Shown here piece by piece: positions 1 to 35,890 of a stretch of DNA of 35,890 bases; positions within the stretch are counted from its first letter, which is position 1; the number at the start of each line of letters is the position of its first letter. Both the position numbers and the translations under genes were made by a program. Origin of the DNA: a virus (Duplodnaviria; Heunggongvirae; Uroviricota; Caudoviricetes); IMG/VR virus record IMGVR_UViG_2909303794_000009; one strand, 5' to 3'. Under the pieces are notes generated by a model that did not search any database, had not been told where the DNA came from, and saw nothing but the letters and a program-made list of their open reading frames with translations.

Positions 1-585
1 CTATTCGATAATGGGTACTGTTGGCCATTCAATATCCGGTGCAGTTGTTGTATTAACACGGTTCAGCAACACCCGATATTTTTTCCAGGCTTCCAGCAAT
101 GAGGTTTCTTCCTCCGTTGCGATCTCCAGATCTACAGCATCCTGAAGTGGCGCTATATGCTCACTGGCTACCTGCATCAGGCTGTTTTTTGTTTCTTCCG
201 CCTCCCGGATCCGGAACAGTTTTTCTGCTTCCGTATCCTTCACCCAGGCTGTGCCGTTCCACTTCTGATATTCCCCTTCCGGCGATAACCAGGTGACATT
301 TTCCGGTAACGAGCCAAGTTCAGAAATAAATAACGCGTCGCCGGAAGCCACGTCATAGACGGTTTTTCCCCGATGATCTTCAACGAGATGCCACGATGCC
401 TCATCACTGTTGAAAACAGCCACAAAGCCAGCCGGAATATCTGGCGGTGCAATATCGGTACTGTTTGCTGGCAGACCTGTATGAGGCGGAATATATGCGT
501 CACCTTCACCAATAAATTCATTAGTTCCGGCCAGCAGATTATAAATTTTTATGGTCCGTGCTTGTTCACTCATTCTGAATGCCAT
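1..585 (-). CDS. tfa: Tail fiber assembly protein (lambda Tfa-like, 194 aa)
   Basis: ORF-track protein [24 protein letters not shown]... matches lambda Tfa as I recall it in length and sequence; start overlaps the stf stop by 1 nt (ATGA). Confidence 0.9.
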
Positions 586-19230: not shown

Positions 19231-22911
<3,681 letters not shown>

Positions 22912-25787: not shown

Positions 25788-26225
25788 TTATTTCAGGCAT
25801 TGCGTCCTGATGTACTCCTGCAGGTAGTTAACCTGCGCGGTTATCCTGTCGATTCCACTTCGGAGACGGTAATAATTGAGTTCAGCATCTGCTGTAAGTC
25901 TTGGGCTTTCTCCATCGCCCATGCTGCTGGCTCCGGTCTTTGACTTTGCACATGAGGCGGCGACTTGCAGCCGCTTACGCCCAGCAGAAACATCATCACG
26001 GAGACTTTCGATAGTCGCGTTAGCATCAGCAAGCTCCTTTGTATATCTGGCGTCGAGTTCTGCTACGTCACGTTGACGCTTCTGCATGTCAGCGATGATG
26101 GATGTGGCTTTGTCGCGCTGGGCTTTGTAGGCGATGGCGTTATCACGGTAATGATTAACAGCCCATAACAGGCAGACGATGATGCAGATAACCAGAGCGG
26201 AGATAATCGCGGTGACTCTGCTCAT
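25788..26225 (-). CDS. Rz: Spanin inner-membrane subunit Rz (145 aa)
   Basis: [30 protein letters not shown]... N-terminal TM helix plus coiled coil; lambda Rz-like; 4-nt overlap with R. Confidence 0.85.
25841..26032 (-). CDS. Rz1: Spanin outer-membrane lipoprotein Rz1, embedded in the +1 frame of Rz
   Basis: 63-aa nested ORF with signal/lipobox …[10 protein letters not shown] followed by a Pro-containing segment; same embedded architecture as lambda Rz/Rz1. Confidence 0.7.
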
Positions 26226-26698
26226 GCCTCAATCTCTCTGACCGTTCCGCCTGCTTCTTTGAATTTTGAAATCAGACTGTCAGCCTTATGCTCGAACTGA
26301 CCATAACCAGCGCCCGGCAATGAAGCCCAGATATTGCTGCAACGGTCGATTGCCTGACGAATATCACCGCGGTCAATCATCGGTAAAGCGCCACGCTCTT
26401 TAATCTGTTGCAATGCCACAGCGTCCTGGCTTTTCGGAGAGAAGTCTTTCAGGCCAAGCTGCTTACGATAGGCATCCCACCAACGGGAAAGAAGCTGGTA
26501 ACGTCCGGCTGCTGTTGATTTGAGTTTTGGGTTTAGCGTGACAAGTTTGCGAGGGTGATCGGAGTAATCAGTAAACAGTTCACCACCGACAATAACATCA
26601 TAACCGTGGTTACGTGTCGGTTGTCGCCCGTTATCCGTTCCTTCTGACCATGCAACCATATCCAGGAAAGCTTTACGCTGGGAATTTAGTACCTGCAT
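26222..26698 (-). CDS. R: Endolysin R (lytic transglycosylase, 158 aa)
   Basis: …[73 protein letters not shown]… is near-identical to lambda R as recalled. Confidence 0.9.
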
Positions 26699-26701
26699 AA
26701 A

Positions 26702-27037
26702 TTACTCCTTCGAGCTACCAAACTTGTTACCGATTACTCTCATTGCAGCCCCACGAATAGCATCGACACCGATCAGCCCCACCCCACCACCAATGGCAAC
26801 AGAAAGCGATTTAGGCCATCCGACATACTCAAGCGCGGATGCAAAGGTCAACGTCAGAGCGCCACATAGCAAAATCTCGAGCGTTTTTCGCTTCCAGCCA
26901 CCACCACCGCCAAAATAGGCGATGCGCAAACCAGCCATAACAATCGACATAATCACTGCGCCCAGCGGCGTATCTCCACGCCACCAGCTCTGAAACAACT
27001 CCAGCCAGTCCGGCCAGGTATTTGGGTTATGAGGCAT
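26702..27037 (-). CDS. S: Holin (lambda S family but divergent), ~111 aa from the MPHNPNTW start
   Basis: Three hydrophobic segments (GAVIMSIVMAGLRIAYF, LEILLCGALTLTFASAL, VAIGGGVGLIGVDAI) and a charged C-terminus; loosely alignable to lambda S; GAGGTGA RBS upstream of the ATG at 27037. The ORF track extends to 27133, overlapping the methyltransferase 3' end. Confidence 0.7.
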   Translation of the reverse strand: MPHNPNTWPDWLELFQSWWRGDTPLGAVIMSIVMAGLRIAYFGGGGGWKRKTLEILLCGALTLTFASALEYVGWPKSLSVAIGGGVGLIGVDAIRGAAMRVIGNKFGSSKE

Positions 27038-27113
27038 TTCGTCATCTCTCACCTCGCGATATTTGCGGGTGCTGTGTTGGAAATAAAAAGGCCACGCAAC
27101 GTGGCCACCAGAA

Positions 27114-28166
27114 TTATTTCCCCACCAGTTCACTTACCTCTTTCACCGTCTGATTAAACCGCTCTGACTCAAGTTCAACACCTAACGCCCGACGCCCCAG
27201 CGCCATTGCCGCTTTTATTGTGGAACCGGATCCCATAAAGAAATCAGCAACCAGATCGCCTTGTCGACTACTGGCACTGATTATTTGCCGGAGCATATCC
27301 GCAGGCTTCTCACACGGATGTTTACCCGGGTAGAACTGAACGGGTTTATGCGTCCAGACATCGGTATAAGGCACGGAAACTGATACGGAGAAATAGCGCC
27401 GGAGAGTTTTAAACTCATCCAGCAATTCAGAATATTTGCGATTCAGTGAATCATAAGATGCCACCAGCTGGTGGTGTGGTTGTTCCAGTTGTTGTTCCTG
27501 AAATTTCTCTGCCGCTATACGGGAAAACAGTGCCTGCAACTTCCGGTAGTCAGCCTCATTCGGCAACTGCCACTGACTGGCACCAAACCAGTGGGAAACC
27601 ATATTTTTCTTACCAGTGGCTTCGGCAATCTGTTTTGCCGTTATACCCAGTTCGGCACGAGCATCCCTGAAATACGAAATCAGCGGTGCCATTATGTGCT
27701 GTTTGAGTTGACTTTCTTTTGCCGCATAGCCGTCACTTTTGCCGCGATATGGTCCCTGGTAATGTTCAGCAAACAGAACGCGTTCTGTTGCGGGAAAATA
27801 TGCGCGCAGACTTTCTTTATTACACCCGTTCCATCGTCCGGACGGCTTCGCCCAGATAATATGGTTAAGAACGTTGAAACGTTCACGCATCATGATCTCG
27901 ATATCAGATGCGAGGCGATGTCCACAGAACAGGTAAAGGCTTCCGGCAGGTTTCAGCACCCGCCAGAACTGAGCCAGACAGTGGTCCAGCCACTTCAGGT
28001 AATCTTCGTCCCCTTTCCACTGATTGTCCCAACCGTTGGGTTTCACCTTGAAGTACGGCGGATCGGTAACAATCAGGTCAATGGAATCATCAGGCAGGGA
28101 CTGAATAAAATGCAGGCAATCAGCGTTGATTAAATCAACACTGTTTATTTTCACAGTATTTTTCAT
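27114..28166 (-). CDS. Orphan DNA methyltransferase (N6-adenine/N4-cytosine type, beta-class motif order), 350 aa
   Basis: N-terminal catalytic motif IV DPPY (…IDLIVTDPPYF…) and C-terminal SAM-binding motif I (…DFFMGSGST…); no adjacent restriction endonuclease gene. Confidence 0.85.
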   Translation of the reverse strand: MKNTVKINSVDLINADCLHFIQSLPDDSIDLIVTDPPYFKVKPNGWDNQWKGDEDYLKWLDHCLAQFWRVLKPAGSLYLFCGHRLASDIEIMMRERFNVLNHIIWAKPSGRWNGCNKESLRAYFPATERVLFAEHYQGPYRGKSDGYAAKESQLKQHIMAPLISYFRDARAELGITAKQIAEATGKKNMVSHWFGASQWQLPNEADYRKLQALFSRIAAEKFQEQQLEQPHHQLVASYDSLNRKYSELLDEFKTLRRYFSVSVSVPYTDVWTHKPVQFYPGKHPCEKPADMLRQIISASSRQGDLVADFFMGSGSTIKAAMALGRRALGVELESERFNQTVKEVSELVGK

Positions 28167-28315
28167 GGATCAGTAAGCGTAACTCTGGTAGGCTCACTCT
28201 GCTTTTGCGCTAAAGCAGTGGGCCGTGGTTCGCTTGTGACCAGTAAGCATGAGCGAATGGCTGGCAGGTGCTACCAACACCCACCAGCCGCCCATTTTCA
28301 CAAATTAAAAGCCCT

Positions 28316-28510
28316 TCATTGCTGAAGGCGTCTGTAACAGCCGAACTGGTAATCTGCCAGCCCCGCCATAACCAGCTGGGTCAGTATTAACTGACAGCGT
28401 TCGCGTGAAAGGTATGTGTTTTGTGCAATCTCCCCGACTGTTGCCGGTTTGCCGTTTAATTCATTAAAAACAACTTTCGCCGTTTCTGTCATATCTAGCT
28501 GTTTTAGCAT
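28316..28510 (-). CDS. Small winged-helix DNA-binding protein, FaeA/PapI-like (64 aa)
   Basis: MLKQLDMTETAKVVFNELNGKPATVGEIAQNTYLSRERCQLILTQLVMAGLADYQ… has the small-regulator pattern (…G…T..EIA…..S….R..L..L…G.) seen in PapI/FaeA-type proteins; sits directly upstream of the methyltransferase. Confidence 0.45.
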   Translation of the reverse strand: MLKQLDMTETAKVVFNELNGKPATVGEIAQNTYLSRERCQLILTQLVMAGLADYQFGCYRRLQQ

Positions 28511-28627
28511 GTCTTTTTACCTTCATGGTTAACATGACATACCAATAACTCTTGTCTAAAAAGCCAGCAAGATAAAAAGTCAGTATTCACGACCACCAGC
28601 GTGTTTACCGTACTGCACCAGGTTTAC

Positions 28628-28657
28628 AGGTACAAAAAAACCCGCTCGACGGCGGGT
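28628..28657 (-). terminator. Putative intrinsic terminator (minus-strand orientation) between the porin and the late genes
   Basis: Minus strand ACCCGCC-GTCGA-GCGGGT followed by TTTTTTT. Confidence 0.5.
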
Positions 28658-28699
28658 TTAAGCTGTGTGGCGAAGTAACCACTCTTAACAGCATAACCA

Positions 28700-29084
28700 A
28701 TTTTTTACGTACGTAAACCTCTAAACAATATTTGTGAGAATGATATCGAGTGTTCAAAACACCACCACAATCACATAAGGAAAAATAAACAAATAATCAT
28801 TAAATAATTTCCGACGTTATTTTCAGTGAATTTAAATTAAAGAGATGAATTATAGAACACTTATAAATAACAACCTTTAATATAATTTAGCTACCAAATT
28901 TATTTTCTTTCAGAGAATAGTCATGCACAGCATGCATTAGAAAAAGTTCAGATAAAAATAGAGATCTAGATCACAATTTAAATAAGAATCTAAAACTTAC
29001 ATCTTGAATTAATCACATTGATTAGATGAATATTTGTCGCGCAGGGCATCATTTTTTAATAAATGTTCAAAAAAAGGTCTCACG
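28700..29084 (+). promoter_or_regulatory. AT-rich upstream regulatory region of the porin gene
   Basis: ~380 bp of very low GC with repeated TTTA/ACAT-type motifs (e.g. ACTTACATCTTGAATTAATCACATTGATTAGATG) resembling porin promoter/OmpR-box regions; no -10/-35 assigned. Confidence 0.3.
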
Positions 29085-30167
29085 ATGAAAAAATTAACAG
29101 TGGCAATTTCTGCTGTAGCTGCATCAGTACTGATGGCGATGTCTGCTCAGGCAGCTGAAATTTATAATAAAGACAGTAACAAGCTGGATCTGTACGGGAA
29201 AGTTAATGCTAAGCACTACTTCTCCTCTAATGATGCAGATGATGGTGATACTACTTATGCCCGTCTTGGCTTCAAAGGTGAAACCCAAATCAACGATCAA
29301 CTGACTGGTTTCGGTCAGTGGGAATATGAATTCAAAGGCAACCGCGCTGAATCTCAAGGTTCCTCCAAAGATAAAACCCGTCTTGCCTTCGCTGGCCTGA
29401 AATTCGGTGACTACGGCTCCATCGATTATGGCCGTAACTACGGTGTAGCATACGATATTGGTGCATGGACCGACGTTCTGCCAGAATTCGGTGGCGATAC
29501 CTGGACCCAAACAGATGTATTCATGACTGGTCGCACCACAGGTGTTGCAACTTATCGTAACAACGACTTCTTTGGTCTGGTTGATGGCCTGAACTTTGCA
29601 GCTCAGTATCAGGGCAAAAATGACCGAAATGAAGTAACTGAAGCTAATGGCGATGGTTTCGGTTTCTCAACTACTTATGAGTATGAAGGATTCGGCGTGG
29701 GTGCAACCTATGCTAAATCTGATCGCACTAATAATCAGGTTATCCTCGGTAACAACGGTCTGAATGCTTCTGGTAAAAATGCTGAAGTATGGGCAGCTGG
29801 TCTGAAATATGATGCGAACAACATCTATCTGGCCACCACCTATTCTGAAACCCAGAACATGACTGTTTTTGGTAATAACCATATTGCCAACAAAGCACAA
29901 AACTTCGAAGCTGTTGCACAATATCAGTTCGACTTCGGCCTGCGTCCATCCGTTGCTTACCTGCATTCTAAAGGAAAAGACTTGGGTGTTTGGGGTGATC
30001 AGGACCTGGTTGAATATGTTGATGTAGGTGCAACCTATTACTTCAACAAAAATATGTCCACTTTTGTTGACTACAAAATCAACCTGATTGATAAGAGCGA
30101 TTTCACGAAAGCATCTGGCGTTGCTACCGATGATATCGTTGCTGTAGGTATGGTTTACCAGTTCTAA
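29085..30167 (+). CDS. nmpC: Outer membrane general porin, NmpC/Lc/OmpC-family (360 aa with signal peptide)
   Basis: [40 protein letters not shown]… signal peptide and mature N-terminus, C-terminal …VAVGMVYQF; the ORF track begins 17 codons earlier at an alternative start codon. Confidence 0.85.
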
Positions 30168-30182
30168 TTTGATTACTAAAAG

Positions 30183-30225
30183 ATATGTTGTGGGAGGCTT
30201 TGCCTCCCCAACATATAAGTGGCTC
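30183..30225 (-). terminator. Candidate tR'-like terminator downstream of Q (minus-strand orientation)
   Basis: Minus strand ATATGTTGGGGAGGC-AAA-GCCTCCCACAACATAT followed by CTTTT; located ~130-170 nt downstream of the Q stop, as expected for a short pR' leader. Confidence 0.3.
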
Positions 30226-30304
30226 CCTCAAGCCACTTCCTTTAGAAGCACAACCTTGCTTCTAACTATACAAACCTTCTGTTATATATTACCCTTTATT
30301 TTTG

Positions 30305-30332
30305 GGGGCGCTTCAACGCCCCATTTTTAATA
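30305..30332 (+). terminator. Putative intrinsic terminator of the porin gene
   Basis: Plus strand GGGGCG-CTTCAA-CGCCCC followed by ATTTTTAAT. Confidence 0.45.
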
Positions 30333-30355
30333 ACTTTTAGTAAATAATTGGCGTA

Positions 30356-30739
30356 TTAATTAGAGTTATTAACAACGATATCCATCTCTAACCGGATATC
30401 TAATGCCATTAACATCCCTTCAATTATGCCCTCAGCCTTTTGTAACCTTTTCCCGATATAACCATCAGAGCAGCAATGCTTACCTGCCAGTGACATGAAT
30501 GTCATACCGACTATATAATAATCTACTAATAAATCATGCAAATCGCTGTTGTTCTTTTTCAGACGGGCCATGCACCCGCAAATGATCATCGCGTCATCGT
30601 CACAACATTGCGGGCGAGATTTTACTTTTGAAGGAATTAATCCCTTAAAACCGGCGGCAATGGACGACCAGGTCACATCTTCATGATTATTAGCCGCCCA
30701 CGCTCCCCAACGCTCAAGAACCATCTGAATATCACGCAT
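30356..30739 (-). CDS. Q: Late-gene antiterminator Q, phage 82/QuuD-type (127 aa from [11 protein letters not shown] start)
   Basis: [33 protein letters not shown]… with Cys cluster (…[12 protein letters not shown]…); GGAG RBS 8 nt upstream; unlike lambda Q; the ORF track begins 5 codons earlier. Confidence 0.75.
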
Positions 30740-30821
30740 CAACTTACTCCACAAAAATCAGACCAAAACGCCAATTACAAGCAAAAATCAACAAAACAGT
30801 ATTAGTTGATTGTTATCTCTG

Positions 30822-30962
30822 ACTTCATACTCCTGCTCCTGTCAGGGTTTTGGCGTAACTCTTCAGTATTCGGTAATCGGTCAAAACAGAACCGGGGAAA
30901 CGATATAAGCGCAGACGCCCCCAGCGGTGGCGAAGAAGTTCTGCCATATTAAACTCAAACAT
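30822..30962 (-). CDS. ylcG: Small protein YlcG-like (46 aa), start overlapping the rusA stop
   Basis: Hand-translated: [45 protein letters not shown]; below the ORF-track size cut-off; lies between rusA and Q. Confidence 0.5.
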
Positions 30963-31324
30963 CATTCATTCCCCATTTCGGTGATGGTCAGTTCCAGCCT
31001 CCCACCTTTGGTAACAGGCATCTTCACAACGCGGTAATCAACGACCTGAGCATCATCCAGCCAGAAACCTGCTTTAGTGAGTGCGTCAAAAGCGGCTTTT
31101 TGCAGATTATCCAGGTCACGGCGACGGCGATCCGGCATGTGGCACTCAATGCGGATTTTCACAGGCATAGCCAGGCCGATATCCAGTATTGCGTTTTTAA
31201 TGATTCGGGCGACGTTATCGCGGTATGCCTGCCCCTCTGCGCTGACGTGCGTGCGCCCGCGATTATGGCGGTAATAGCGATTATTGCTCGGAGGCCAGGG
31301 TAATGTGATGCTGTAGGTATTCAC
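30962..31324 (-). CDS. rusA: Holliday-junction resolvase RusA (120 aa)
   Basis: [41 protein letters not shown]… RusA family; nin-region position upstream of Q. Confidence 0.85.
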
Positions 31325-31530: not shown

Positions 31531-31872
31531 CTAAGCATTATTGGCCTCCTGCATCAGGAGAAAGACAATCATGGCGGCGCGGAGAGGTCTGGTATCAAAT
31601 ATTGGGCTTACGCCTTTTGCATCCACACACCATTCAGTTAACTGGTCTAAGATAGAAATCCTGTATTTCTCAATAATCGGCCATGAAGCGCTCGGATCAT
31701 TGCAGTAGTCAGGCAAATGATTTAATGGCTCAAAAGTTGTATCAGCATTTCCGTAATACCATTTGTTGGTGTTATTCCCTGATGTTTCCGGTTTACTTGC
31801 CCAAAGGCCTTTAAAAATTATGTCTCCTACCATTCTGTTAATTTCAAAATCACTTAACTGTGAATAATCCAT
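31531..31872 (-). CDS. Hypothetical nin-region phage protein (113 aa from MDYSQL start)
   Basis: ORF-track frame 31531..31914; GAGGAA RBS fits the second ATG ([17 protein letters not shown]…); no family recognised; ~110 bp from the IS left end. Confidence 0.45.
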
Positions 31873-32037
31873 TGTCATTTCCTCGCACGATATCTTAGCC
31901 ACCGGATATCCCACAGGTGAGCTGTGTAATTGAAGGTTTTTACGTCAGATTCTTTTGGGATTGGCTTGCGTTTATTTCTGGAGTGAACCGCCCCGGGAAT
32001 CCTGGAGACTAAACTCCCTGAGAAAGAGGTAAACAGG

Positions 32038-32364
32038 ATGACTAAAAATACACGTTTTTCCCCCGAGGTCCGTCAACGGGCAGTTCGTATGGTTCTGGAA
32101 AGTCAGGGCGAATATGACTCTCAATGGGCGGCAATTTGTTCCATTGCCCCAAAGATTGGCTGTACACCAGAGACTCTGCGTGTGTGGGTTCGTCAGCATG
32201 AGCGGGATACCGGGAGTGGTGATGGTGGACTCACCACCGCTGAACGTCAGCGTCTGAAAGAGCTGGAACGTGAAAATCGTGAACTGCGCCGCAGTAACGA
32301 TATCCTTCGCCAGGCTTCCGCTTATTTTGCGAAGGCGGAGTTCGACCGCCTCTGGAAAAAATAA
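32038..32364 (+). CDS. IS3-family transposase OrfA (HTH, 108 aa)
   Basis: [59 protein letters not shown]… recognised as IS629-group OrfA; ends in an A-rich run (A AAA AAT AA) overlapping the orfB start. Confidence 0.85.
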
Positions 32365-33251
32365 TGCCGCTGCTGGATAAGCTGCGTGAGCAGTACGGGG
32401 TCGGACCGGTATGCAGTGAACTGCATATTGCCCCGTCAACGTATTACCACTGTCAGCAACAGCGACATCATCCTGATAAACGCAGTGCCCGTGCTCAGCG
32501 CGATGACTGGCTGAAGAGAGAGATACAGCGCGTATACGATGAAAATCATCAGGTGTACGGTGTGCGTAAAGTCTGGCGCCAGTTGTTACGCGAAGGTATC
32601 AGGGTGGCCAGATGTACAGTGGCGCGCCTCATGGCGGTTATGGGACTTGCCGGTGTTCTCCGGGGTAAAAAGGTCCGTACTACCGTCAGCCGGAAAGCCG
32701 TTTCCGCAGGCGACCGCGTAAACCGTCAGTTCGTGGCAGAACGTCCTGACCAGCTGTGGGTGGCTGATTTTACTTACGTCAGCACATGGCAGGGCTTCGT
32801 CTATGTGGCGTTCATCATTGATGTGTTTGCCGGATGTATCGTGGGGTGGCGAGTCTCATCGTCTATGGAAACGACATTCGTGCTGGATGCACTGGAGCAG
32901 GCGTTGTGGGCCCGTCGGCCGTCCGGCACAGTCCATCACAGTGATAAAGGTTCTCAGTATGTATCACTGGCCTATACGGAGCGACTAAAAGAAGCAAAAC
33001 TGCTGGCATCAACAGGGAGTACAGGTGACTCGTATGACAACGCGATGGCGGAGAGCATCAATGGTCTTTACAAAGCGGAGGTAATACACCGTAAGAGCTG
33101 GAAAAACCGTGCAGAAGTGGAACTGGCCACACTCACGTGGGTGGACTGGTATAACAATCGACGATTGCTGGGAAGGCTGGGTCATATCCCTCCGGCAGAA
33201 GCAGAAAAAGCTTATTATGCTTCCATCAGAAACGATGATCTGGCAGCCTGA
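32364..33251 (+). CDS. IS3-family transposase OrfB (DDE integrase core, 295 aa)
   Basis: …LWVADFTYVSTWQGFVYVAFIIDVFAGCIVGW…HSDKGSQYVS…DNAMAESINGLYKAEVI… DDE-type catalytic core. Confidence 0.85.
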   Translation: MPLLDKLREQYGVGPVCSELHIAPSTYYHCQQQRHHPDKRSARAQRDDWLKREIQRVYDENHQVYGVRKVWRQLLREGIRVARCTVARLMAVMGLAGVLRGKKVRTTVSRKAVSAGDRVNRQFVAERPDQLWVADFTYVSTWQGFVYVAFIIDVFAGCIVGWRVSSSMETTFVLDALEQALWARRPSGTVHHSDKGSQYVSLAYTERLKEAKLLASTGSTGDSYDNAMAESINGLYKAEVIHRKSWKNRAEVELATLTWVDWYNNRRLLGRLGHIPPAEAEKAYYASIRNDDLAA

Positions 33252-33295
33252 GTTCACAGATAAAACACTCTCCAGGAAAACCGGGGCGGTTCATA

Positions 33296-33423
33296 TTCCC
33301 TCCTCCGGTTAAGGATGGAAGAGAGTATCTGTTCCACGAATCAGCGGTAAAGGTTGACTTAAATCGACCAGTAACAGGTAGCCTTTTGAAGAGGATCAGA
33401 AATGGGAAGAAGGCGAAGTCATG
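33296..33423 (+). pseudogene. xis: Excisionase xis, 5'-truncated remnant (C-terminal ~42 codons only)
   Basis: Frame immediately after the IS right end reads FPPPVKDGREYLFHESAVKVDLNRPVTGSLLKRIRNGKKAKS*, the lambda Xis C-terminus, with its stop overlapping the int start; the N-terminal ~30 codons are absent. Confidence 0.7.
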
Positions 33424-34472
33424 AGCGCCGGGATTTACCCCCTAACCTTTATATAAGAAACAATGGATATTACTGCTACAGGGACCCAAGGACGGGTAAA
33501 GAGTTTGGATTAGGCCGAGACAGGCGAATCGCAATCACTGAAGCTATACAGGCCAACATTGAGTTATTTTCAGGACACAAACACAAGCCTCTGACAGCGA
33601 GAATCAACAGTGATAATTCCGTTACGTTACATTCATGGCTTGATCGCTACGAAAAAATCCTGGCCAGCAGAGGAATCAAGCAGAAGACACTCATAAATTA
33701 CATGAGCAAAATTAAAGCAATAAGGAGGGGTCTGCCTGATGCTCCACTTGAAGACATCACCACAAAAGAAATTGCGGCAATGCTCAATGGATACATAGAC
33801 GAGGGCAAGGCGGCATCAGCCAAGTTAATCAGATCAACACTGAGCGATGCATTCCGAGAGGCTATAGCTGAAGGCCATATAACAACAAACCCGGTCGCAG
33901 CCACTCGCGCTGCAAAATCAGAGGTAAGGAGATCAAGACTTACGGCTGACGAATACCTGAAAATTTATCAAGCAGCAGAATCATCACCATGTTGGCTTAG
34001 ACTTGCAATGGAACTGGCTGTTGTTACCGGGCAGCGAGTTGGTGATTTATGCGAAATGAAGTGGTCTGATATCGTAGATGGATATCTTTATGTCGAGCAA
34101 AGCAAAACAGGCGTAAAAATTGCCATCCCAACAACATTGCATGTTGATGCTCTCGGGATATCAATGAAGGAAACACTTGATAAATGCAAAAAGATTCTTG
34201 GCGGAGAAACCATAATTGCATCTACTCGTCGTGAACCGCTTTCATCCGGCACAGTATCAAGGTATTTTATGCGCGCACGAAAAGCATCAGGTCTCTCCTT
34301 CGAAGGGGATCCGCCAACCTTTCACGAGTTGCGCAGTTTGTCTGCAAGACTCTATGAGAAGCAGATAAGCGATAAATTTGCTCAACATCTTCTCGGGCAT
34401 AAGTCGGACACCATGGCATCACAGTATCGTGATGACAGAGGCAGGGAGTGGGACAAAATTGAAATCAAATAA
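33402..34472 (+). CDS. int: Integrase (tyrosine recombinase), lambda Int (356 aa)
   Basis: MGRRRSHERRDLPPNLYIRNNGYYCYRDPRTGKEFGLGRDRRIAITEAIQANIELF… essentially identical to lambda Int as recalled; followed by the att site. Confidence 0.95.
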   Translation: MGRRRSHERRDLPPNLYIRNNGYYCYRDPRTGKEFGLGRDRRIAITEAIQANIELFSGHKHKPLTARINSDNSVTLHSWLDRYEKILASRGIKQKTLINYMSKIKAIRRGLPDAPLEDITTKEIAAMLNGYIDEGKAASAKLIRSTLSDAFREAIAEGHITTNPVAATRAAKSEVRRSRLTADEYLKIYQAAESSPCWLRLAMELAVVTGQRVGDLCEMKWSDIVDGYLYVEQSKTGVKIAIPTTLHVDALGISMKETLDKCKKILGGETIIASTRREPLSSGTVSRYFMRARKASGLSFEGDPPTFHELRSLSARLYEKQISDKFAQHLLGHKSDTMASQYRDDRGREWDKIEIK

Positions 34473-34606: not shown

Positions 34607-35890
34607 GTGAACACATTTTCAGTTTCCCGTCTGGCGCTGGCATTGGCTTTTGGCGTGACGCTGACCGCCTGTAGCTCAACCCCGCCCGATCAACGTCCTT
34701 CTGATCAAACCGCGCCTGGTACCTCTTCTCGCCCGATTCTGTCGGCAAAAGAAGCGCAGAATTTCGATGCTCAACACTATTTTGCATCCCTGACACCAGG
34801 TGCTGCAGCGTGGAATCCTTCCCCGATTACCCTGCCTGCGCAACCTGACTTTGTTGTCGGCCCGGCGGGCACTCAAGGTGTAACGCATACCACGATTCAG
34901 GCGGCGGTAGATGCGGCAATTATCAAGCGTACCAACAAGCGCCAGTATATTGCCGTGATGCCTGGTGAGTATCAGGGAACGGTATATGTCCCTGCCGCTC
35001 CGGGTGGAATTACTCTGTACGGTACAGGTGAAAAACCGATTGATGTGAAGATTGGGCTTTCCCTTGATGGTGGCATGAGCCCTGCCGACTGGCGTCACGA
35101 CGTCAACCCGCGCGGCAAATATATGCCAGGTAAACCAGCGTGGTATATGTACGATAGCTGCCAGAGCAAACGCAGCGACAGTATCGGTGTTCTCTGCTCT
35201 GCGGTCTTCTGGTCACAAAACAATGGCCTGCAACTGCAAAATCTGACCATCGAAAACACGCTGGGCGATAGCGTAGATGCAGGTAACCATCCGGCGGTGG
35301 CACTGCGTACTGATGGTGACCAGGTACAGATTAACAACGTTAACATTCTCGGTCGTCAGAACACCTTCTTTGTCACCAACAGCGGTGTGCAGAACCGTCT
35401 GGAAACGAATCGTCAGCCGCGTACGCTGGTGACCAACAGCTACATTGAAGGGGATGTGGATATCGTTTCTGGTCGCGGCGCAGTGGTGTTCGATAACACC
35501 GAATTCCGCGTGGTGAACTCACGTACTCAGCAAGAAGCGTATGTGTTTGCACCGGCTACGCTGTCCAACATTTACTACGGTTTCCTCGCCGTAAACAGCC
35601 GTTTCAATGCTTTCGGTGATGGTGTGGCGCAACTGGGCCGCTCGCTGGATGTTGATGCCAATACCAACGGTCAGGTGGTGATCCGTGATAGCGCCATCAA
35701 CGAAGGTTTTAACACGGCTAAACCGTGGGCCGATGCGGTGATCTCTAATCGTCCGTTTGCGGGTAATACCGGCAGCGTAGATGATAACGACGAAATACAG
35801 CGCAATCTGAATGACACTAACTACAACCGCATGTGGGAATACAATAACCGCGGCGTGGGTAGTAAAGTGGTTGCAGAGGCGAAGAAGTAA
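34607..35890 (+). CDS. ybhC: Host outer-membrane lipoprotein YbhC (pectinesterase-like, 427 aa)
   Basis: (V/M)NTFSVSRLALALAFGVTLTAC lipoprotein signal; right-handed beta-helix-like repeats; recognised as the chromosomal gene flanking the lambda attachment site on the gal side. Confidence 0.85.
   Translation: MNTFSVSRLALALAFGVTLTACSSTPPDQRPSDQTAPGTSSRPILSAKEAQNFDAQHYFASLTPGAAAWNPSPITLPAQPDFVVGPAGTQGVTHTTIQAAVDAAIIKRTNKRQYIAVMPGEYQGTVYVPAAPGGITLYGTGEKPIDVKIGLSLDGGMSPADWRHDVNPRGKYMPGKPAWYMYDSCQSKRSDSIGVLCSAVFWSQNNGLQLQNLTIENTLGDSVDAGNHPAVALRTDGDQVQINNVNILGRQNTFFVTNSGVQNRLETNRQPRTLVTNSYIEGDVDIVSGRGAVVFDNTEFRVVNSRTQQEAYVFAPATLSNIYYGFLAVNSRFNAFGDGVAQLGRSLDVDANTNGQVVIRDSAINEGFNTAKPWADAVISNRPFAGNTGSVDDNDEIQRNLNDTNYNRMWEYNNRGVGSKVVAEAKK

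Follow-up and report, generated by a model that had tools for sequence, protein, structure and literature searches.

A complete porin gene lying on the opposite strand to every phage gene around it raises the question of which transcription unit it belongs to, and whether phage late transcription ever runs across it. The window analyzed here, a stretch of 35,890 nt catalogued in IMG/VR as IMGVR_UViG_2909303794_000009 (Caudoviricetes), is a lambda-like prophage in reversed orientation, extending from tail-fibre genes to int (33402-34472) next to ybhC (34607-35890), in the region of the lambda attachment site. The porin gene is on the plus strand, and each of the phage genes that surround it is on the minus strand. 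A first-pass annotation of this DNA described an NmpC/Lc-type porin embedded antisense in the phage late leader, and proposed that late transcription opposes the porin mRNA and thereby switches the element between lysogenic and lytic expression. That annotation named the porin correctly and put it in the wrong transcription unit.

An intact phage porin with a structured 3' UTR

The porin gene, of the NmpC/Lc type, occupies 29085-30167 on the plus strand and encodes 360 amino acids from an ATG at 29085 to a TAA at 30165-30167. The Pfam Porin_1 profile (PF00267) aligns with the translation over its full length (positions 1-337 of 337, E 9.8e-153), bearing out, well beyond chance, the description of a complete general porin gene, here a 360-codon ORF, that separates Q from the lysis genes and is read in the opposite direction. 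The solved porins OmpK37, OmpC, PhoE and OmpF in the PDB also match over the full length (E 1e-135 to 1e-116) and belong to the same fold family as the window porin, whose locus is separate and phage-borne. Mature residue 1 of these porins aligns with residue 24 of the query, implying a 23-residue signal peptide (residues 1-23, 29085-29153, plus strand). Beside this signal peptide, recognized by alignment, the translation has the loop-3 motif LPEFGGD, which includes the PEFGG signature of general porins, and ends in YQF with its C-terminal aromatic residue.

The identity of the gene follows from its closest relatives. The protein is 91.9% identical to NmpC of E. coli K-12, compared after removal of a 1,199-bp IS5 including its target duplication, and 99.4% identical to the porin of phage ev243, with coding sequences 99.7% identical. 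An identical protein is already present at NCBI as a multispecies "porin OmpC", and its cluster at 90% identity has 2,741 members, one of which carries "outer membrane porin protein LC" as its source name. The RefSeq names "porin OmpC/OmpD" are family-level labels and do not denote the chromosomal ompC gene; the window porin is an intact copy of the NmpC/Lc lysogenic-conversion porin of lambdoid phages. Its classification as a phage porin moron of this type holds up, on the similarity to K-12 NmpC, its own base composition and terminator, an intact reading frame and purifying selection. The NmpC/Lc porin has been known since Schnaitman's studies of PA-2. Descriptions of such phage porins and of their ipeX tail date from the 1970s to the 2000s, and the presence of such a gene is therefore a finding already known. 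PA-2, the source of the Lc porin (protein 2), is an inducible phage, whereas the window element is a deleted remnant.

Behind the stop codon lies a structured 3' UTR of 163 nt (30168-30330, plus strand) that comprises three hairpins and a predicted intrinsic terminator, GGGGCGCTTCAACGCCCC followed by ATTTTT as the U-run (30305-30322, plus strand). The RNA ipeX reportedly follows the stop codon of nmpC and precedes the terminator of that gene, and ipeX sequence is found at exactly this place in the window, where the 3' UTR is 95.7% identical to that of the K-12 prophage DLP12. Its computed folding energy of -57.4 kcal/mol compares with -29.7 ± 3.4 for shuffled sequences (z -8.05), and the changes among alleles, which are highly similar, fall mostly in loops and bulges. 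Single-nucleotide indels among the alleles argue that the 53-codon ORF at 30169-30330 is not a gene. No Rfam family was found to cover the 3' UTR. In the literature ipeX is listed as a 167-nt RNA of DLP12 that is reported to lower OmpC and OmpF, and reviews have it transcribed from the porin promoter; the part of the cassette that the literature names as lowering host porins was thus overlooked in the first-pass annotation. A 10-bp inverted repeat, TTACTAAAAG at 30173-30182 and CTTTTAGTAA at 30334-30343, brackets the ipeX region in the window allele and a few others, and is broken in most alleles.

The porin cassette and the late promoter

The limits of the inserted DNA emerge from comparison with 933W, an Stx2 phage. 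By blastn, the body of Q (30741 to 30407 in the window) aligns with 933W positions 20242-20576 (75%), and a second block (28718 to 28605) aligns with 20665-20778 (76.5% over 114 nt). The two blocks are collinear and are separated by 1,688 nt in the window as against 88 nt in 933W. The intervening DNA, about 1.7 kb at 28719-30406, is very probably a reverse-oriented cassette inserted between Q and the late promoter pR', which are adjacent in 933W. It consists of an AT-rich region that would serve a regulatory role, the gene for a putative general-diffusion porin, the ipeX 3' UTR and an intrinsic terminator predicted to be the cassette's own. The GC content of the cassette is 0.27-0.47 compared with approximately 0.50 in the flanks, and falls to 0.27-0.33 across 28600-29200; the AT-rich upstream region and plus-strand terminator ascribed to the gene at first sight are thus both present. 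The originally proposed range, 28700-30335, fits the cassette closely, except that on the left it ends within the late promoter.

This promoter, placed by homology to the annotated feature of 933W, occupies 28690-28717 on the minus strand and consists of TTTACG (-35, 28717-28712), a 16-nt spacer and TATGCT (-10, 28695-28690). Its 933W counterpart, labelled "putative" in the 933W record, reads TTTACG, 16 nt and TATCAT. The late start site is estimated to lie near 28683 on the minus strand. Alignment also places the initial transcribed region at 28667-28687 (minus strand), where a core, TAAGAGTGGTTAC (28687-28675), precedes the counterpart of the 933W qut, which is annotated as an 8-nt site. Next comes a first late terminator, tR'-like, at 28632-28659 (minus strand), where AAACCCGCCGTCGAGCGGGTTT precedes a T-run and the sequence aligns with 933W 20726-20748. 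A search with the minus strand of 28600-28800 matched the 933W region annotated with pR', qut and the terminator. The core is invariant in the window, 933W, K-12 and mEp460, and occurs as a single exact copy in the window; a literature text search for its sequence returned nothing relevant. A paper on svsR was set aside as unrelated to the porin and late-promoter locus, and an Rfam Trp_leader match on the late terminator was sub-threshold and was taken as chance.

The same arrangement recurs among relatives. In all 80 of the closest IMG/VR porin loci, the core motif is present in one copy, on the minus strand, upstream of the porin, and in 78 of the 80 closest IMG/VR Q loci it lies 1,672-1,691 nt past the Q stop codon with the porin in between. 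The genomes of ev243, PhiR70_1, PhiR34_1 and D2 share the Q-porin-pR' layout, with the holin gene beginning shortly past the terminator. Across 11 alleles, no non-coding piece is better conserved than the pR'-tR' block, whose mean pairwise difference is 0.010 compared with 0.082 in the adjacent AT-rich DNA.

The pR'/qut/tR' homologue (28718-28605, minus strand) is therefore upstream of the porin and divergent from it. As the block lies on the far side of the porin from Q, the late transcript begins some 400 nt upstream of the ATG of the porin gene and heads away from it. Two earlier claims fall with this placement: the porin is not embedded in the late leader, since the sole 933W-type pR'/qut/terminator block is beyond its 5' end, and late transcription, fired away from the gene, is not antisense to the porin mRNA. 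That the porin sits inside the Q-dependent late leader, with antisense late transcription as a lysogenic/lytic switch, was a natural supposition, because the gene does separate Q physically from the lysis genes and has the opposite orientation, and because pR' comes immediately after Q in lambda and 933W and would be expected there. A second core copy, however, is absent from the window, a consensus scan detected no promoter-like site on the minus strand between Q and the porin stop codon (30168-30355), and the closest viral loci and phage genome records have the contrary layout; the supposition is now extremely improbable. The same consensus scan did not report pR' itself, which matches the consensus at 8 of 12 positions and falls below the scan threshold.

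Experiments on related phages support this placement and bear on its details. In the Stx phages of strain Sakai, PR' drives transcription of the RNA StxS, whose mapped 3' end is 258 nt further downstream (PMC7547250). By our arithmetic, this end fits the second annotated terminator of 933W and not the one aligned here, from which it follows that the hairpin at 28659-28638 may be leaky. In DLP12, a promoter reporter for the lysis cassette spans the nmpC-essD intergenic region (PMC7918800). Its forward primer is located in the nmpC signal-peptide codons, and according to the reporter's numbering (-121 to +650), the +1 would be near window positions 29036-29039 on the minus strand, some 350 nt upstream of the 933W-type promoter and about 48 nt ahead of the porin start codon. 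The intergenic region may accordingly contain more than one leftward promoter; such a start, if real, overlaps the promoter or 5' UTR region of the porin and is still outside its coding sequence. The sequence TGAACAT...CCTGC at approximately 29036-29070 (minus strand) loosely resembles a sigma-E promoter.

The porin's own promoter and 5' UTR must be contained in the AT-rich region at 28719-29084 (plus strand), delimited by its GC content and the 11-allele alignment. In this alignment the proximal 150 nt of the upstream region are conserved and the distal part is variable; the distal portion of the window allele (28719-28950) differs by approximately 18% from all ten other sampled alleles. The consensus promoter scan called no promoter near the porin gene. 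Protein 2 is subject to catabolite repression. A CRP-like site at 28957-28978 was considered as its cause and is no more than a lead, given that the frequency of such matches in the window is that of chance (14 observed, 15.8 expected). A partial match to the upstream region elsewhere (H14) proved to be a DLP12-like remnant only. In strain 13E0725, a DLP12-like element that has decayed retains, beside ybcM, ybcL and emrE, a remnant of 386 nt (L007, 4001-4386) with the porin upstream region and first codons but without the gene.

Downstream of pR', the late operon spans 25788-28510 on the minus strand, as judged from the ORF list, profiles and relatives. It comprises, all on this strand, a 64-aa ORF (28316-28510), an N6/N4 DNA methylase of 350 aa (27114-28166), the holin (26702-27037; 26702-27133 as listed), the endolysin (26222-26698) and Rz (25788-26225). 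The true late leader thus has two cargo genes, the 64-aa ORF and the methylase, between the late terminator and the holin, and this pair is common to mEp460_4F5 and TUM9812. The 64-aa ORF is closely followed by a second terminator-like hairpin (28328-28313). A tRNA scan detected no tRNA genes in the window, unlike the late leader of 933W.

Convergence of the porin and Q transcripts

The antiterminator gene Q is of the QuuD type (PF06530, E 1.2e-53) and occupies 30356-30739 on the minus strand when read from the RefSeq start, giving 127 aa; the ORF list has it begin at a TTG at 30754 (30356-30754). It is annotated quuD in relatives, and its product is 78% identical to Q of 933W. Structures of Q21 were set aside as only distant relatives (35 bits). 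RusA (30962-31324) and a NinX-like gene (31531-31914) are encoded nearby, also on the minus strand. Q and the porin gene are convergent, with 188 nt between their stop codons. Of the convergent arrangement described initially, the geometry survives with a change of partner: the porin faces the early-right transcript carrying Q, and it diverges from the late transcript.

Hairpin 1 of ipeX, when read on the minus strand (30216-30183), forms a bulged 15-bp stem followed by CUUUU, and the run is CTTTTT in most alleles. Its sequence, fold and allele conservation make the element at 30177-30216 (minus strand) look like a candidate terminator for the Q transcript, placed 10 nt short of the porin stop codon. 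With the predicted terminators of the two transcripts facing each other, the porin and Q mRNAs would overlap by about 150 nt across ipeX.

These features, together with homology to the NmpC, Lc and ipeX work, suggest how the cassette might operate. In a lysogen it would be transcribed from its own promoter, and the mRNA would be translated into a trimeric outer-membrane porin. The 3' UTR, as part of the porin transcript, would lower OmpC and OmpF post-transcriptionally. Replacement of host porins by the phage porin would present an altered surface to other phages and colicins and alter permeability. The porin and late promoters would be divergent and some 300-400 bp apart, such that the late transcript would never cross the porin; only transcription through Q would converge on it, and the minus-strand hairpin at 30216-30177 is placed where it could stop that transcription.

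A regulatory link could nevertheless be imagined in relatives with an intact early region. There, transcription from PR through Q, antiterminated by an N-type factor, might run antisense across ipeX and the porin during lytic growth, and either shut off the cassette or let the porin/ipeX RNA act on the 3' end of the Q mRNA. The convergence of the two genes across 188 nt, the facing predicted terminators with their mRNA overlap, and the retention by the closest relatives of a lambda-type early region with cI, cro, cII, cIII and O/P homologues are all compatible with this model. It is, however, an unlikely one: it is inferred in its entirety, the minus-strand hairpin looks built to stop the Q transcript before it reaches the porin, and the early region is gone from the window, where the model cannot apply. 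It is still more doubtful that in intact relatives pairing of the porin/ipeX RNA, which would be abundant in the lysogen, with the 3' end of the Q mRNA, or the reverse, sets the threshold for Q and hence for lysis, by analogy with the lambda OOP and paQ antisense RNAs. If true, such pairing would in addition lift the repression of host porins as soon as Q is transcribed.

Spread, selection and the state of this prophage

Of 5,426 complete E. coli genomes, 2,462 carry the module at 28636-30360 at a coverage of at least 80%, as do 36 deposited phage records, the closest being ev243 (95.9%); quuD is annotated under the module match among the matches listed. The window copy conforms to this pattern, residing in a lambdoid prophage, adjoining a QuuD-type Q, on the opposite strand and before the lysis genes. 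A porin-less phage with a near-identical Q was not encountered among the closest IMG/VR Q loci, all 80 of which carry the porin, and 933W, at 78% Q identity, is the nearest porin-less comparator.

All 11 of the porin alleles compared are intact. Amino acid substitutions among them occur only in five patches within the C-terminal half, and residues 1-180 hardly vary. Comparison with the K-12 allele gives a dS of 0.52 and a dN/dS of 0.09, the latter falling to 0.00-0.03 outside the five patches; as judged from these sequence comparisons, dN/dS indicates long-term selection for a working protein. The coding sequence has diverged (dS ~0.5) far beyond Q (1-4%) or the late-promoter block (~1%), and the five variable patches look like swapped segments. 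This high divergence, with amino acid changes restricted to patches, fits pressure from outside, as could be exerted by phages, colicins or immunity. Two independent insertions of IS5 interrupt the porin gene, one towards the N-terminus in TUM9812 (L002, 6566-8847) and the other towards the C-terminus in K-12 (L001, 3952-6200), and loss of the gene is evidently tolerated.

The prophage itself, which occupies the lambda attachment region, is a remnant that cannot be induced. An IS3-family element (about 31950-33300; ORFs 32038-32364 and 32364-33251, with an ALIL frameshift pseudoknot at 32319-32435) is all that lies between the NinX-like gene and int. The immunity region, N, the replication genes and most nin genes, which are retained in the closest relative TUM9812, are absent from the window. 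With the early region lost to this element, no lysogenic/lytic switch can operate here, and the switch by late antisense transcription that had been envisaged would be inoperable in this copy in any case.

The question then arises as to whether the porin is a quiescent passenger of a dead prophage, intact merely through recent descent, silent (e.g. through binding of H-NS to its AT-rich DNA) and contributing nothing to this host. The defective state of the prophage would accord with such silence, as would the report that nmpC is not expressed in K-12 owing to an insertion element, the IS5 in the porin gene of the 100%-identical relative TUM9812, and the divergence of the window's upstream region from every other sampled allele. 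Against this stand the strong purifying selection across deeply diverged alleles, the integrity of all 11 of them with changes held to five patches, and the conservation of the proximal promoter region and 3' UTR; on balance silence of this kind is improbable, and expression of the cassette from its own promoter is the reading we favor.

The closest known counterpart is DLP12 (qsr') of E. coli K-12, in which NmpC occupies the same slot in the same orientation, with quuD, an opposite-strand porin, the late promoter and the lysis genes in the same order. Q is 99% and the pR'-tR' block 95.4% identical between the two elements, and the distal upstream region is approximately 18% diverged. K-12 NmpC is five residues longer, differs from the window porin in its loop patches and is broken by IS5 near its 3' end, whereas the window copy is intact. 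In K-12, essD directly follows the late promoter region, whereas in the window the 64-aa ORF and the DNA methylase precede the holin. The Stx2 phage 933W, with its StxS RNA, is more distant: Q, the promoter, the initial transcribed region and the first terminator are homologous, but its pR' overlaps the end of Q, and its cargo, the tRNAs and stx2, is downstream of pR' in the late transcript. The window cargo instead occupies the interval from Q to pR', upstream of this promoter, and faces in the opposite direction. The module is very common in E. coli prophages, and its cargo, set after Q and ahead of the late promoter, is outside the late transcript, a correction with the consequence that models tying porin expression to late transcription, as for Shiga toxin, do not apply.

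Elsewhere in the window, positions 44-242 (minus strand) give a full-length match to the Rfam entry IS009 (225 bits) within an ORF at 1-585 of a tail-fibre assembly family. Finally, a different phage, mEp460_4F5, shares the late-promoter core and encodes a Q belonging to this family (45% identity); its slot between Q and the late promoter holds an unrelated 308-aa gene without a Pfam match (L004, 1510-2436), also on the opposite strand. The Q-late promoter slot may be a general site for reverse-oriented cargo.
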